Source: Escherichia coli
GTDB lineage: Bacteria > Pseudomonadota > Gammaproteobacteria > Enterobacterales > Enterobacteriaceae
Assembly: GCF_044324785.1 (NCBI RefSeq)
Contig: NZ_CP172127.1
Direction: 5' to 3' (one strand)
Length of the DNA: 64,000 bases
Under the pieces are notes generated by a model, which did not search any database, had not been told where the DNA came from, and saw nothing but the letters and a program-made list of their open reading frames with translations. Shown in pieces: positions 36,031 through 41,796 of the stretch. A program made the translations under genes and the position numbers. The stretch's first letter is position 1. Each line of letters begins with the position of its first letter.

Positions 36031-37533
36031 TTATTCATCAATTCGCGGATGTTGCTGCACCAGGCGGGTACGTTTCGCCTGCAAATCGGCAATCTCGTGG
36101 TCAATATCATCGATTTTCTGCTCGATATTATCGTAATGCTCGACGAGAATTTCCTTCGCTTCCTGTATATCTGACGCCGCCGGTGTCGCACCTTTCAACG
36201 GACGATTCGCCGTCTCTTTCATGGTTACGCCGGTGATTAAACCAACCACCGCCACTACCATCAGGTAATAGGCAGGCATCATCAGATTCTGCGAGCTTTC
36301 GACCAGCCAGGCCGCCAGTGTTGGCGTCAGACCGGCAACCAGCACCGAAATATTAAATGCCGCCGCCAGCGCGCTGTAACGGATATGCGTCGGGAACATC
36401 GCTGGCAAGGTAGAAGCCATAACGCCCGTAAAGCAGTTAAGGATCACCGCCAGCATCAGTAACCCGGCAAAAATCAGGCCGATGACGTTACTGTTAATCA
36501 GAATAAACGCCGGGATCGCCAACACAAACAGTGCAACACTACCAAGTAGCACAAACGGACGACGGCCAAAACGGTCACTCAGCAAGCCCATCACCGGCTG
36601 GACAAACAGCATACCGATCATAATGGCGATAATAATCAGCACCCCGTGGTCTTCGGAGTAATGCAGGTTATGCGACAAATAACTCGGCATATAGGTCAGC
36701 AACATGTAGTAAGTCACGTTGGTGGCAATTACCAGACCAATACATGTCAACAGGCTGCGCCAGTGTTTGGTGGCAATCTCTTTAAACGAGACTTTCGGGC
36801 CATCCTGCAAACCTTCGCGGTCGCCCTGCTCCAGTTTATCAACATGCTGCTGGAACGCCGGGGTCTCTTCCAGCGCATGGCGCAGGTAAAGCCCGATAAT
36901 CCCTAACGGCAGAGCAATAAAGAACGGAATACGCCAGCCCCAGTCGAGGAAGTTCGCTTCGCCGACAATGGTCGAAATTAACACCACCACGCCCGCACCC
37001 AGCACAAACCCGGCAATAGAACCGAAGTCCAGCCAGCTGCCCATAAAGCCACGTTTACGGTCAGGGGAGTATTCCGCAACAAATATCGACGCCCCGGTAT
37101 ATTCACCGCCGACCGAGAAACCTTGTGCCATCTTACAGATCAACAGCAGAATCGGTGCCCAAATACCAATCGTGTCGTAGGACGGTATTAAGCCAATACA
37201 GAACGTACTGATCGACATAATCACAATAGTGATAGCGAGGATCTTCTGGCGACCATATTTATCGCCCAACATACCAAAGAAGAGCCCGCCAAGCGGTCGA
37301 ATCAGAAAGGGAACGGAGAAAGTGGCAAGTGCAGCAACCATCTGCACGCTGGGGTCAGCCCCCGGGAAAAAAACTTTACCTAATGCGTAAGCAACAAAAC
37401 CATAAACACCAAAATCGAACCATTCCATTGCATTACCCAGTGATGCTGCGGTAATGGCTTTACGCAGTTTACCGTCATCAATAATGGTGACATCACGAAG
37501 GGTAATCGGTTTTACTTTTTTCCTTTTCAGCAT
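36031..37533 (-). CDS. proP: Proline/glycine betaine osmoprotectant symporter
   Basis: 500 aa MFS transporter with C-terminal coiled coil; start at MLKRKKVKP. Confidence 0.9.
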   Translation of the reverse strand: MLKRKKVKPITLRDVTIIDDGKLRKAITAASLGNAMEWFDFGVYGFVAYALGKVFFPGADPSVQMVAALATFSVPFLIRPLGGLFFGMLGDKYGRQKILAITIVIMSISTFCIGLIPSYDTIGIWAPILLLICKMAQGFSVGGEYTGASIFVAEYSPDRKRGFMGSWLDFGSIAGFVLGAGVVVLISTIVGEANFLDWGWRIPFFIALPLGIIGLYLRHALEETPAFQQHVDKLEQGDREGLQDGPKVSFKEIATKHWRSLLTCIGLVIATNVTYYMLLTYMPSYLSHNLHYSEDHGVLIIIAIMIGMLFVQPVMGLLSDRFGRRPFVLLGSVALFVLAIPAFILINSNVIGLIFAGLLMLAVILNCFTGVMASTLPAMFPTHIRYSALAAAFNISVLVAGLTPTLAAWLVESSQNLMMPAYYLMVVAVVGLITGVTMKETANRPLKGATPAASDIQEAKEILVEHYDNIEQKIDDIDHEIADLQAKRTRLVQQHPRIDE

Positions 37534-37796
37534 AGCTTTCCTCGCAGAGTTGGCCCATTTCCGCAAACGCCAGAAAAATCAGCGCGACGGCCGCAAAAGG
37601 GGAGCGGGAATTGCAGGATGCAATCTCTGTAACAAGCGTAGCGGGTTTGCTTACACCCTCCGGTTAAGGAATGTACAATCAAACCAGTTGACGCCTGAAT
37701 TGGGCAGTTAATGACCTTTTTACCCTACCAGTGTTTAAATTTGTGATCAACTTCACATATGGATTTCGTTTAGGACTCATTGATGTAACTGATTAT

Positions 37797-38675
37797 TTAC
37801 ACCAAATTTACAGAGAAGATTTCCTCGACCATTGCCCCCGCCAGACGCTGCGCTGAACAGAGTCGTGGCATCCCCAGCGCGACAGTTTGCCAGCGTTGGG
37901 TCACTGACCAGCAAACGGGTTGTTTATCTGCCGTGGTCCACTTTCCCAGCCAACTTAAAAAATCAGCATGATCCCCGCCCGTCGGAACGGTCGAAGAGGC
38001 AAACCACTGATGGTAATAGTGACGCGTGGTCGGGGCCGCATTGATACTCTCTGCCAAATGTTGTGTCGCTTTCTCGCGCAAATCACCCAGCAACAACGCC
38101 ACCGCTTGCGGGCTTCCCAGACGGCAGGCATCGCCAAATGCCCCCCAGCGCAACTCCTCCAGAACGATAAAACAGCGCCCAGGCAACGACCAGGCGTTAT
38201 ACGCCCCAGCACGCCAGCGGGTAAAAATTTGCTCGCTCTGATCACCTGCCTGCACCAGTAGGCCTCGTTGCGTTAACGCCTTTTCCTTCCAGCGACAACG
38301 GGCTGAAAACCACTCATACAAGGCGGCAATTTGCTGGGGGAGCTCCGGGAAAGCAGAGTGCTGGCGGTGATCCATTTTTTGCAGCAGCGCCAGATGCTGC
38401 GCGATCTGCGTCAGTGCCAGATGACCGGGATCCAGCATCGACGCCAGTTTTTCCACCAATGTCAGACGCAGGCTAAGCGGCGCATTTAACATGCCGCCGT
38501 TCGTCCATGTCTGAAGCTGCACGCGCGCAAGAAGTTCCTGCATCAGTCGTTCACGAAACTGCTGCTGATGGGCTTGTGGAAGGCGGGCATCATCGCCCTG
38601 CGCCAAATCCACTAAAAAGCGGGGATAAACCGACTCCAGCACGCGACCGGGGCCGTCAAGTAACGTCTTGGTCAA
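37797..38675 (-). CDS. yjcZ: Uncharacterised protein YjcZ
   Basis: 292 aa; start overlaps crfC stop. Confidence 0.8.
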   Translation of the reverse strand: MTKTLLDGPGRVLESVYPRFLVDLAQGDDARLPQAHQQQFRERLMQELLARVQLQTWTNGGMLNAPLSLRLTLVEKLASMLDPGHLALTQIAQHLALLQKMDHRQHSAFPELPQQIAALYEWFSARCRWKEKALTQRGLLVQAGDQSEQIFTRWRAGAYNAWSLPGRCFIVLEELRWGAFGDACRLGSPQAVALLLGDLREKATQHLAESINAAPTTRHYYHQWFASSTVPTGGDHADFLSWLGKWTTADKQPVCWSVTQRWQTVALGMPRLCSAQRLAGAMVEEIFSVNLV

Positions 38676-40900
38676 TATCGTTCTGCCGTGAAAAGTGTTT
38701 GAATATCATCGCGTAACAGCTGGGCGTCGGTGTAAATCCAGCCGTGAGTCATCACAGCCTGCTGCAATTGCTGCTGCATCAGCCTGACCACCGATTCATT
38801 TTGTTGACGCAGAGCCAGGCTTTCGCGTAAACGCGTCTGTAATTCCGTCAAACATGAAGCGAACTCAGCGAAAAAAGTATTCATGCCTGCCGTAACAGAT
38901 TCATCGACCTGCTCTGCCAGAACTTTAGCCATTTGTTGGCAATAAAGATCGACTTCTGCGCTTAATGCTCGTTGCAACACACTGTAATCAACCGTCTCTG
39001 TCGGGGATTTCTCATTTCCCCGTCCCCAGTCGGGCTGATTCAACCAGCGCGAAAAAGTCTCACGCACAACGCCTAAACGCGTGCTCTGCTCGTCCGTTGC
39101 TTCCTGGCGCGAAATGACTTCACTGAACAGCTGGCGAGTGTTGAAGTGGGGAACTACGCCGTGAAAAACAGGAAAATGAAACCCAGGACGAAACCCTGAC
39201 TCGCTCAATTCCATTTTGATTTGTTGCTCAATGGGGCGAATAACATCGGTTAACACCCGGCAAAGGGTGGATTCCAGCTCGGCAAAACGCAGCGTAAAGT
39301 CGCGACTGATGGTGTTCTGCGCCGTCTGTAACAGTGTCTCACAGCGGGTACGAATCTCGCTTAACGGCTCCGAATCATCCTGAAACAAGGCGGCTAACTG
39401 CGCATTCAGCGCATCTTGCTGTTGACGCAGAAAGTGGTTGGCGGAGGTCAGGGCCAGCTCGATTTCATGTTTAATCTCGCCGCTCACCTGCGCCTGATTG
39501 AGTTGCAATAGCTGCAAACTTTCTTCGATCTGATGGATATTTTGCCGCAATTGTTCACAAGCGACGTTTAACCCGTGCGCACGAAAATCCAGGTATTCCC
39601 GCGCCTGCTGCGCGTAATTCAACAGTTTATGCGCGGCAGATCGCAGAGCATACAACGAGGCGTTAGCGTAAGCGGCATGAAGCAACGCCTGAATTGGCTG
39701 GGCGAACAGCGAATCTTCCCACAACTGATCGGCAGCATGACGAATATGTTCGAGGTCCGCCAGATCGGCATGACGCCAGCGCCTGCCGAGCGCGGCATGG
39801 GCAAAATCTTCCACCCAGCGTTGTTGCTCTGGCGGTGGTAACTTACCGTTGTTGGCTAACTCATTGCGCGCCCGATTCGCCAGGTAGCCCCACATCGACG
39901 ACACCGGAAATATCTGCTGTGGCGTAATACAGCCTTTCATCAGCGTCCCGGAAATCAGTGCCCGCACCTGGTCGGCGTCGTCACTGTTACGATCCTGTTG
40001 ATCGAACTTATTGACCAGCACATACAGCGGCACCGATTGCCCCACCGCCAAAATCGCCTCACGGACCTCTTCATCGGAGATCGATTTCAGTTGCGTATAA
40101 TCCAGCACCGCCAGTACCGCCGAGGCGCGTGCCAGCTGCTGGTTAAGCATTTTTTGCAGATGCGGTTGCCCGGCTTCATTTGGCCCAGGGGTATCCAGTA
40201 ACGTCAACTGACCGGGATAACTCTCCAGCCCCGCCAGATGGACAAACTCCACTTCAATCACGGGAATATGCTCAATGGCGGCGTAAGCAGAAAAAGGAAA
40301 ATCGACGTCCAGCGCCTTCGCCAATCGCACCAAATCATTCAAACTTTTCAGACAATGAAAAATAGGCTGGGCACCCAGATAATATTTTTCGAAAGCGACG
40401 CCATTTTCGATCCGCTGCATAAGCGCACGCATATCTTTATCTATTTCCAGCACATCGGTCAGATGCTTAATATCGCAATCACGCAGGCGCTGTTGTAATT
40501 TTTGAATTAAACAATCGATTGGCGCGACATGTGAAAAATGCAGTACCGGTTCCTTTTGCCCGGGCGTATGGCGAATAAGTGTCGGCAGCGCAGTCATTGG
40601 GCGATTACGATTAGGCAAAACCTCCGTACCAACAATGGCATTAATGGTGGTTGATTTCCCTGCTTTCATGGTACCGACAATCGCCAGCACCATTTCCAGT
40701 CGGGAAATTTTACGCAACTCATTATTCAGCATCGCGTGACGTTCGGCGATATTAGGCTGACTCCAGGGTAAAGCCAGTTGTGGCGCATCGTCTCCGGGGA
40801 CAGAGAGAGGCATTTTTTCCAGTAACTGCAACTGTTGGCGAGAAAGCTGTAACAGGCGTTCAGCCTCCTGACTTAACTCATACAGGGTCTGTGTGTACAT
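38672..40900 (-). CDS. crfC: Dynamin-like GTPase CrfC (YjdA)
   Basis: 742 aa; P-loop GTMKAGKST. Confidence 0.85.
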   Translation of the reverse strand: MYTQTLYELSQEAERLLQLSRQQLQLLEKMPLSVPGDDAPQLALPWSQPNIAERHAMLNNELRKISRLEMVLAIVGTMKAGKSTTINAIVGTEVLPNRNRPMTALPTLIRHTPGQKEPVLHFSHVAPIDCLIQKLQQRLRDCDIKHLTDVLEIDKDMRALMQRIENGVAFEKYYLGAQPIFHCLKSLNDLVRLAKALDVDFPFSAYAAIEHIPVIEVEFVHLAGLESYPGQLTLLDTPGPNEAGQPHLQKMLNQQLARASAVLAVLDYTQLKSISDEEVREAILAVGQSVPLYVLVNKFDQQDRNSDDADQVRALISGTLMKGCITPQQIFPVSSMWGYLANRARNELANNGKLPPPEQQRWVEDFAHAALGRRWRHADLADLEHIRHAADQLWEDSLFAQPIQALLHAAYANASLYALRSAAHKLLNYAQQAREYLDFRAHGLNVACEQLRQNIHQIEESLQLLQLNQAQVSGEIKHEIELALTSANHFLRQQQDALNAQLAALFQDDSEPLSEIRTRCETLLQTAQNTISRDFTLRFAELESTLCRVLTDVIRPIEQQIKMELSESGFRPGFHFPVFHGVVPHFNTRQLFSEVISRQEATDEQSTRLGVVRETFSRWLNQPDWGRGNEKSPTETVDYSVLQRALSAEVDLYCQQMAKVLAEQVDESVTAGMNTFFAEFASCLTELQTRLRESLALRQQNESVVRLMQQQLQQAVMTHGWIYTDAQLLRDDIQTLFTAERY

Positions 40901-41301
40901 AAAAAATTCTTCCTTAAAGCAAATTTTGTTACTTTTATTTAGCCAGATTGTTTTTGAGTTCTGTTTTCGGCTTTTATAATTACTGCAAGAAATAATTTTA
41001 TATTTAGCGTGTTGTTTTTTATTAGAATAAATAACGTCTTCCGATACGTTTAAAACGTCAGAAAGATAAAAATATCATTTGAATTAAAAAAAGAACAAGT
41101 AGAGCATTAACCTTATCTTAAATAATAAATGGAGGCAAAAAGATTATTTTCTTTTTGCGTTTCCTTTCAAATGAAAACGATCGTCGTCTAAAATCAGCAG
41201 TACCCCCGACAAACTCAGGGATTTTGTGTATAATTGCGGCCTTTTTCGGCAATCTGCCGTTTTTTGGCGCTTTTGCCCTGCTGACTTTTGAGGAAATCCA
41301 C

Positions 41302-41637: not shown

Positions 41638-41655
41638 TTGTATTGTGATCGGTAA

Positions 41656-41731
41656 GCCGGATAAGGCGCTCGCGCCGCATCCGGCAACGATGCCGACAGC
41701 CTGATGCGACGCTGACCGCGTCTTATCAGGC
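41656..41731. repeat. REP/BIME palindromic repeat cluster
   Basis: gccggataaggcg...cgccgcatccggc and gcctgatgcgacgctg...cgtcttatcaggc imperfect palindromes. Confidence 0.5.
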
Positions 41732-41796
41732 TTCCCTCTCATCTGTATAAATTTCGAACTACACTTAACTGGCTTCTCTTAACTGAGGTCACCATC

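Follow-up and report, generated by a model that had tools for sequence, protein, structure and literature searches.

The crfC–yjcZ operon of Escherichia coli as the core-genome RdcA–RdcB system, with a probable origin in a mobile dynamin–RdcB–patatin cassette

Here we analyse a 64,000-nucleotide stretch of Escherichia coli DNA (contig NZ_CP172127.1 of assembly GCF_044324785.1; hereafter the window) and, within it, the two-gene operon at positions 37797–40900 on the minus strand, which encodes the dynamin-like GTPase CrfC (also YjdA or RdcA) and its partner YjcZ (RdcB). The locus is already known as the characterised RdcA/RdcB system. We assign a probability of roughly 80% to the reading that the region is the core crfC/yjdA/rdcA and yjcZ/rdcB system, which according to the literature activates the diguanylate cyclase DgcE, in which RdcB would serve as an obligate regulatory subunit, and which probably descends from a three-gene cassette found elsewhere on mobile DNA.

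The function of the pair was set out by Pfiffer et al. in 2019, who renamed YjdA and YjcZ as RdcA and RdcB and reported that deletion of either gene phenocopies deletion of dgcE, non-additively, for CsgD, curli, cellulose and cyclic di-GMP (c-di-GMP; PMC6510439). In two-hybrid assays RdcA bound itself, RdcB and the MASE1 domain of DgcE, with no interaction between RdcB and DgcE (PMC6510439). An RdcA-K82A variant, which does not bind GTP, was functional and an RdcA-T103D variant, which does not hydrolyse it, was non-functional; from this the authors derived a model in which nucleotide-free RdcA/RdcB activates DgcE when GTP falls, and they suggested that RdcB is a GTPase-activating or nucleotide-release factor for RdcA (PMC6510439). 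A genome-wide FRET-To-Sort transposon screen from 2026 likewise found rdcA, rdcB, dgcE and ynjH among its low-c-di-GMP mutants (PMC13031359); the last of these is a small FliA-dependent gene outside the window, described as strongly associated with the rdcA/rdcB/dgcE system (PMC13031359; PMC4183435).

CrfC had been described earlier as a clamp-binding nucleoid partition factor that uses the motif 41-QLALP (Ozaki 2013; Taniguchi 2019, PMC6374313), and experiments cited in PMC6510439 and PMC6374313 have reported both GTP hydrolysis by CrfC/RdcA and its nucleotide-dependent self-assembly. This is the same protein as that of the window, with a different proposed role in which YjcZ is not involved. 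K82, T103 and 41-QLALP are all at their published positions in the window CrfC, and a comparison with the RdcA/RdcB of E. coli K-12 (PMC6510439) gave the same locus, gene order, lengths (742 and 292 amino acids) and K82/T103, with no substantive difference. The initial annotation, made from the sequence alone, had called the role of YjcZ unknown, a statement that has been outdated since 2019, when the protein became known as RdcB, a co-activator of DgcE (PMC6510439); the label 'uncharacterised partner' should be dropped. It had named as a refutation a function of YjcZ that was already defined and unrelated to CrfC, and only half of this applies: the function is indeed defined, but it is tied to CrfC.

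A core-genome pair at its published locus

The crfC coding sequence occupies 38672–40900 on the minus strand, starts with ATG and encodes a 742-amino-acid dynamin-like GTPase of the bacterial dynamin-like protein (BDLP) class, and the rdcB coding sequence occupies 37797–38675 on the same strand, starts with TTG and encodes the 292-amino-acid, all-α partner of RdcA. Direct reading of the sequence places the crfC stop codon (TGA) and the rdcB start codon (TTG) in a shared TTGA at 38672–38675 (minus strand), with crfC ending in GAA CGA TAT TGA and rdcB opening with TTG ACC AAG, and bears out the lengths, positions and 4-bp overlap of the two open reading frames (ORFs) that had been described; the weak TTG start had gone without mention. 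Because homologues of YjcZ align with the window protein from residue 1, and because the RefSeq boundaries of both genes in E. coli 042 match those of the window, with an identical junction sequence, we take this TTG to be the orthologous start.

The description of the large protein as a dynamin-like GTPase holds as well, since CrfC matches Pfam Dynamin_N over residues 72–277 (E 2.7e-18) and exceeds the cut-off of the NCBIfam equivalog NF007368, 'clamp-binding protein CrfC', with 1595.1 bits against 1146 and a match spanning residues 1–742 of 742. YjcZ matches Pfam PF13990 with E 2.5e-144 and 480 bits (cut-off 27), its residues 21–287 covering positions 1–272 of the 272 in the model. Of 5426 complete E. 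coli genomes, 5418 have the locus, most of them at 95–99% DNA identity and with proteins that hardly differ across the species, in agreement with its designation as a core-genome pair; the strain of the window stands nearest to E. coli 042 (99.4%). It is flanked by proP on one side and by the divergent yjdM-yjdN-phnCD genes on the other. Both ORFs are genuine conserved genes rather than chance ORFs, and RefSeq already uses the names crfC and rdcB for them.

RdcB, its family and the three-gene cassette

Modelled with confidence from a 78-sequence alignment, RdcB is all-α, with 16 helices, a predicted local distance difference test (pLDDT) score of 90.9 and a predicted template modelling (pTM) score of 0.91. 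We found no solved structural relative of this model and no structural match to any dynamin, and the 292 residues of this all-helical protein contain neither a P-loop nor a G domain. The partner is thereby set apart from those of DLP1/DLP2, IniA/IniC, DynA and LeoA/LeoBC: there it is a second dynamin, whereas that of CrfC is a small all-α protein without a G domain, and the second GTPase of the tandem BDLP pairs (DynA, DLP1/DLP2, IniA/IniC) is absent from the window pair.

The YjcZ family is small, with 201 representative clusters at E <= 1e-3 among 1.84 billion proteins, and its members are almost all single-domain proteins of 285–325 amino acids. To place them in their genomic context we scanned loci from one genome per species, with relatives recovered using a 15-sequence subset of the alignment. 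A CrfC-type dynamin gene lies immediately upstream of the YjcZ homologue in all 50 genome loci (frameshifted in 2 of them), and also in every metagenomic contig whose upstream gene could be classified (L002, L004, L008 and L011–L013). The two-gene form accounts for 32 of the 50 loci and belongs to Enterobacteriaceae (Kosakonia, Leclercia, Phytobacter, Cedecea, Atlantibacter, Citrobacter, Siccibacter and others). Trees of YjcZ and of the dynamin are congruent, with the two-gene loci forming one Enterobacteriaceae clade, to which the dynamin of the three-gene Budvicia locus is sister; CrfC and RdcB of E. coli have long branches compared with those of other Enterobacteriaceae.

Two irregular forms came up in this survey. 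At the loci of Leclercia adecarboxylata NCTC13032 (L061) and Enterobacter sp. EA-1 (L063), crfC and rdcB are split into several frameshifted ORFs, which could reflect real pseudogenisation or long-read assembly errors. A 438-amino-acid protein (P0001) is 96% identical to YjcZ residues 82–292 and is extended at the N terminus by about 227 residues, probably because a frameshift in some assembly has fused it to the C terminus of CrfC.

In 18 of the 50 loci, the RdcB-like gene is directly followed downstream by a third gene, which overlaps it and encodes a patatin-like phospholipase. These three-gene loci come from Pseudomonas, Allochromatium, Thiodictyon, Gallionella, Pantoea, Erwinia, Budvicia, Pontibacterium, Yanghanlia and Escherichia albertii, and a patatin neighbour also accompanies five of five distant metagenomic homologues (23–32% identity). 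All 21 cassette patatins keep the oxyanion motif SGGGAxGAY, the nucleophile motif G[AT]SIG and the catalytic Asp motif DGG. The window pair has no patatin gene directly 3' of rdcB, and a tblastn search with the 21 cassette patatins found no remnant of one in the window (best E 0.036, at an unrelated site).

The cassette is widespread in E. coli itself. An E. albertii-type cassette (in E. albertii at L014:4608-8973, with overlapping genes) is present at >=90% DNA identity in 2606 of 5426 complete E. coli genomes (about 48%), in up to five places per genome, and a variant that is 61.5% identical at the protein level occurs on plasmids of Klebsiella, Enterobacter and E. coli; no member of the family was found on phage records. 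The islands that house the cassette are CP4-like or linked to tRNA genes. In E. coli O121 RM8352 it (L064:12001-16366) lies on a tRNA-Ile island beside ter genes, within a CP4-like backbone (YeeP-like GTPase, DUF932, antirestriction, RadC/JAB and YeeU/CbtA). RefSeq labels its products 'dynamin family protein', 'diguanylate cyclase regulator RdcB family protein' and 'patatin-like phospholipase family protein', and the dynamin is a full-length CrfC paralogue that scores 571 bits on NF007368, under the cut-off of 1146.

The flanks of the cassettes are variable and rich in mobile and defence-type genes, which include a type III methyltransferase, JukA-like, Cas3-like and SNF2 helicases, PIN, HEPN, the CbtA toxin, integrases, TraG and AcaB, as well as restriction-modification and toxin–antitoxin genes; WYL regulators make up 6 of 120 flanking ORFs. 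A conserved regulator upstream of the three-gene cassettes was considered and rejected, as the genes at that position vary by locus (YeeP-like GTPase, YfjJ-like, Transposase_31, AcaB, WYL, HEPN) and there is no fourth conserved component. No PADLOC (2023) model matches the RdcB-like protein, and the cassette fits none of the PADLOC systems, with only weak LeoBC and generic lipase matches. In the literature searched for a function of the cassette there was only a passing genome-survey mention of it as island cargo, and Pfiffer et al. do not mention a patatin (PMC6510439); the cassette appears uncharacterised. Its patatins share SGGGAxGAY, GxSxG and DGG with the CapV-type effector patatins of cyclic-oligonucleotide-based antiphage signalling systems (CBASS), but they match the CBASS lipase models weakly (E 7e-9 to 6e-3), and their partner is a GTPase rather than a cyclic-nucleotide synthase.

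Architecture of CrfC and expression of rdcB

The G domain of CrfC spans about residues 69–350 (39851–40696, minus strand), as delimited by the motifs in its translation that are conserved in homologues: G1 (76-GTMKAGKS-83), G2 (T103), G3 (236-DTPG-239) and G4 (297-NKFD-300), all invariant in 39 homologues. An AlphaFold2 model built with 39 homologues (pLDDT 79, pTM 0.68) has an N-terminal helix at residues 2–29 and long helices at 414–443, 448–505, 513–567, 639–698 and 702–741, and together with Foldseek it delimits a helical neck and trunk, or stalk, at about residues 400–742 (38675–39703, minus strand). In Foldseek the model aligns over 700–840 columns with IniA, Nostoc BDLP and SynDLP (E 1e-13 to 1e-11), at TM-scores of only about 0.3, a value to be expected where stalks are hinged; mitofusins, Campylobacter DLP1/2 and LeoA follow at lower rank. 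Because the alignments to IniA, BDLP and SynDLP are of this length, the 'uncharacterised C-terminal half' of CrfC can be read as a BDLP-type stalk and, judged from the model, CrfC is a full BDLP/IniA-type dynamin. It shares the G domain and helical neck/trunk with the solved structures of Nostoc BDLP (2j68), Mycobacterium smegmatis IniA (6j72), SynDLP (7zw6) and Campylobacter DLP1/DLP2 (5owv), at Foldseek E values of 1e-13 to 1e-7, although sequence identity to these is only 12–15% and CrfC has no evident membrane paddle.

The stalk tip, residues 573–635 (38996–39184, minus strand), is modelled with a pLDDT below 50. Most homologues have the conserved aromatic tip motifs GF...P.F and DWGW, the latter of which is degraded to DWGRG in E. 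coli. At residues 620–632 (about 39005–39043, minus strand) nearly all dynamins of two- and three-gene loci have DWGWE(D/E)Y, and E. coli has DWGRGNEKS. CrfC/RdcA has been called soluble, without a typical membrane-binding motif (PMC6510439, PMC6374313). The β-clamp-binding motif 41-QLALP-45, as defined in PMC6374313, is encoded at 40766–40780 (minus strand) and falls within a low-confidence loop of the model (residues 33–43). In the alignment, none of the other genera examined conserves Q41, and this restriction to E. coli supports a reading of clamp binding as a lineage-specific addition.

Inside crfC, at 38900–38927 on the minus strand and about 225–250 nt upstream of the rdcB TTG, lies the intragenic FliA (σ28) promoter that drives rdcB (TAAAGTTCTGGCAGAGCAGGTCGATGAA). 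Its 28 nt match, with 0 mismatches and 0 matches expected by chance, the site inside yjdA driving yjcZ that was mapped by chromatin immunoprecipitation sequencing (ChIP-seq) and RNA sequencing (RNA-seq; Fitzgerald et al. 2014, PMC4183435). In RNA-seq of a fliA deletion yjcZ fell from 52 to 1 (PMC4183435), and the promoter is active as a reporter fusion (bioRxiv 188474). At the homologous position a FliA-like motif is present in Phytobacter, Leclercia, Silvania and several Enterobacter species and absent from Cedecea, Atlantibacter, Franconibacter, Siccibacter and the three-gene relatives; coding constraint could contribute to its conservation. An in-frame crfC ATG (the Met of AGMNTFF) lies at 38881–38883 on the minus strand, just 3' of the promoter. 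Purely as speculation, a 69-codon C-terminal CrfC frame on the FliA transcript could be translated and bring ribosomes to the TTGA overlap. A FliA promoter upstream of crfC was rejected: 40901–41301 holds no consensus match at <=3 mismatches, and Fitzgerald 2014 calls an earlier upstream prediction wrong (PMC4183435).

The junction of the two genes is tight throughout the family. Among 48 intact homologous loci there are 36 four-base overlaps, 4 one-base overlaps, one 13-base overlap and 7 two-base gaps, and the rdcB-like gene starts with ATG in 45 of the 48. Because the junction is tight in all 48, co-translation is, by sequence comparison, an old family trait, to which E. coli would have added a start weakened to TTG and a promoter of its own. 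The proposal of translational coupling made in the initial annotation is thus correct as far as the overlap goes and incomplete otherwise, as the FliA promoter within crfC drives rdcB as well, and the small RNA GlnZ, whose chimeras map close to the ribosome-binding site of rdcB, is reported to pair there.

Upstream of crfC, the 401-bp divergent crfC–yjdM intergenic region (40901–41301, no strand assigned) is unusually AT-rich, with long A/T tracts and a GC fraction of 0.356 at 40750–41249, and would hold the crfC promoter, which is reportedly repressed by H-NS. Binding of H-NS to crfC and its repression have been reported (PMC6374313), and the AT-rich region fits this published binding. A σ70-like match at 41170–41143 in the same region is an unvalidated candidate only. 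Further out, in the yjdM–yjdN spacer, Rfam assigns 41655–41732 to naRNA4/CssrE (RF02564), scoring 85.5 bits on the plus and 48 bits on the minus strand, which marks a nucleoid-associated RNA element of the repetitive extragenic palindromic (REP) type. Rfam and repeat scans of the operon found nothing inside 37797–40900.

Downstream, rdcB is followed by a 263-bp spacer (37534–37796) and then proP. There is no convincing terminator directly 3' of rdcB in this spacer, and one paper handles yjcZ-proP as a single transcription unit (PMC4066584). NtrC control of yjcZ-proP is not counted here as regulation: a ChIP peak exists, and the authors' electrophoretic mobility shift assay was negative. For proP, the mechanical ORF list gives 36031–37566, starting at the TTG at 37566 (511 amino acids), and RefSeq places the start at 37533 (500 amino acids).

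Proposed mechanism and alternative explanations

In the mechanism that we propose, RdcA would be a soluble dynamin-like GTPase of the BDLP/mitofusin class and RdcB an all-α protein that binds it. According to the literature, both are needed to switch on the membrane-anchored diguanylate cyclase DgcE, with RdcA docking on its MASE1 domain. The active form of RdcA appears to be nucleotide-free, and a dropping GTP pool at the end of growth would lead to production of c-di-GMP, which would engage the YcgR flagellar brake and induce CsgD, curli and cellulose. A second role, in nucleoid partitioning, has been reported for CrfC, which also bears an E. coli-type clamp-binding motif. Expression of rdcB would follow two routes, read-through from crfC across the TTGA overlap and transcription from the intragenic FliA promoter, the latter putting rdcB into the flagellar regulon.

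For RdcB we infer the role of an obligate regulatory subunit in this dynamin subfamily rather than that of an adaptor to the output enzyme, because it is always paired with the dynamin, is retained and required where there is no lipase, and makes no contact with DgcE. It probably acts on the nucleotide or oligomeric state of RdcA. Less securely than this role, we trace the E. coli pair to a mobile dynamin–RdcB–patatin cassette, from which it probably descended by loss of the lipase and rewiring to DgcE and FliA. In favour of this are the patatin genes of 18 of the 50 loci and of all five distant metagenomic homologues, the single clade of two-gene loci with the Budvicia dynamin as its sister, and the confinement of the FliA motif to the subclade of E. 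coli, Leclercia and Phytobacter.

Several points weigh against this account. In the literature found there is no measurement of the biochemical action of RdcB, whether as a GTPase-activating protein, an exchange factor or an assembly factor, and the DgcE model comes mostly from the genetics and two-hybrid data of one laboratory, plus one screen. The group working on CrfC assigns it another primary role, in clamp binding and nucleoid partition (PMC6374313), and a yjcZ deletion was without a motility phenotype in a wild-type background (PMC4183435). As for descent, the direction of change, patatin loss versus gain, is read from midpoint-rooted neighbour-joining trees and breadth of distribution, and Budvicia does not stand beside the two-gene clade in the YjcZ tree.

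We consider it unlikely that the locus is primarily a chromosome-partition device, in which CrfC oligomers on the β-clamp behind the forks would hold sister forks together and YjcZ would be a passenger. The window CrfC has the 41-QLALP motif, and the NCBI equivalog model is named for clamp binding; crfC deletion and Q41A mutants are reported to give anucleate cells, CrfC foci at the nucleoid poles depend on HU, SlmA and MukB, and H-NS represses crfC (PMC6374313). However, other genera keep the pair without conserving Q41, so clamp binding cannot explain the family-wide conservation or the pairing with RdcB; most of the in vivo partition data come from plasmid-expressed protein, clamp binding is GTP-independent, and deletion causes no slowdown of growth (PMC6510439). 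The two roles can also coexist as moonlighting. A somewhat smaller chance falls to CrfC being a classical membrane-remodelling BDLP, acting in inner-membrane fusion, tethering or repair, with YjcZ as its membrane adaptor and DgcE activation as a side effect of recruitment. The whole-length fold matches to the membrane-active BDLP, IniA, SynDLP and mitofusins, the conserved stalk-tip aromatics (GF..P.F, DWGW) and the membrane nature of its target, the MASE1 domain of DgcE, would fit such an activity; yet both published groups call the protein soluble and without a typical membrane-binding motif, the E. coli tip is degraded to DWGRG in the least confident part of the model, a non-quantitative look at the RdcB model revealed no transmembrane or obviously amphipathic segment, and no membrane phenotype has been reported.

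The initial annotation had hinted at phage resistance, and we judge it very improbable that the core crfC–yjcZ pair is an anti-phage defence system, dynamin-based like Eleos/LeoABC or Bacillus subtilis DynA. Dynamin-like proteins do act against phage elsewhere, as in Eleos, which consists of LeoA and LeoBC (bioRxiv 2022.12.12.520048), and the paralogous three-gene cassettes have defence and mobile genes around them. PADLOC gives CrfC weak matches to LeoBC (6.3e-6) and LeoA (1.7e-5), but these reach only 23.6 and 22.1 bits, a range of 22–24 bits that is far from family level, and YjcZ has none, which leaves the hint without support for this pair. Unlike typical defence cargo, the pair is fixed in the core genome (5418/5426), where it occupies a syntenic housekeeping position between proP and yjdM/phn; the locus has neither a second dynamin nor an effector gene, is under FliA and H-NS regulation with a defined c-di-GMP phenotype, and has no phage phenotype in the literature searched. 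LeoA belongs to the same dynamin-like superfamily as CrfC and is a weak structural match to it (E 5e-7), but Eleos comprises two dynamin-like proteins on accessory DNA, whereas CrfC–RdcB is one dynamin with a non-GTPase partner in the core genome, and two dynamin-like genes matching the profile models were not found here.

Beyond the preferred reading of a DgcE-activating pair with RdcB as its regulatory subunit, we tentatively put forward a more specific ancestry, which we regard as possible though less probable than its negation: core rdcA–rdcB may be a domesticated, effector-less descendant of a mobile, GTPase-gated, membrane-lytic dynamin–RdcB–patatin module, serving for instance anti-phage abortive infection or competition between plasmids or islands, whose sensor would have been coupled in Enterobacteriaceae, after loss of the lipase, to a diguanylate cyclase and to the flagellar regulon instead. 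In the cassette, the dynamin–RdcB complex would sense a nucleotide or membrane signal and then unleash the lipase.

The comparison means that the same dynamin–RdcB pair serves DgcE in the core genome of E. coli and, on the mobile DNA of about half of the strains, a patatin lipase, and this provides a new handle on the effect of RdcB upon the GTPase. Strains with both systems could show cross-talk between c-di-GMP and the cassette. Should the cassette turn out to act in defence or competition, it would be the first phospholipase module gated by a dynamin, and it would also provide a case of a housekeeping second-messenger regulator that arose from mobile immunity or donated to it.

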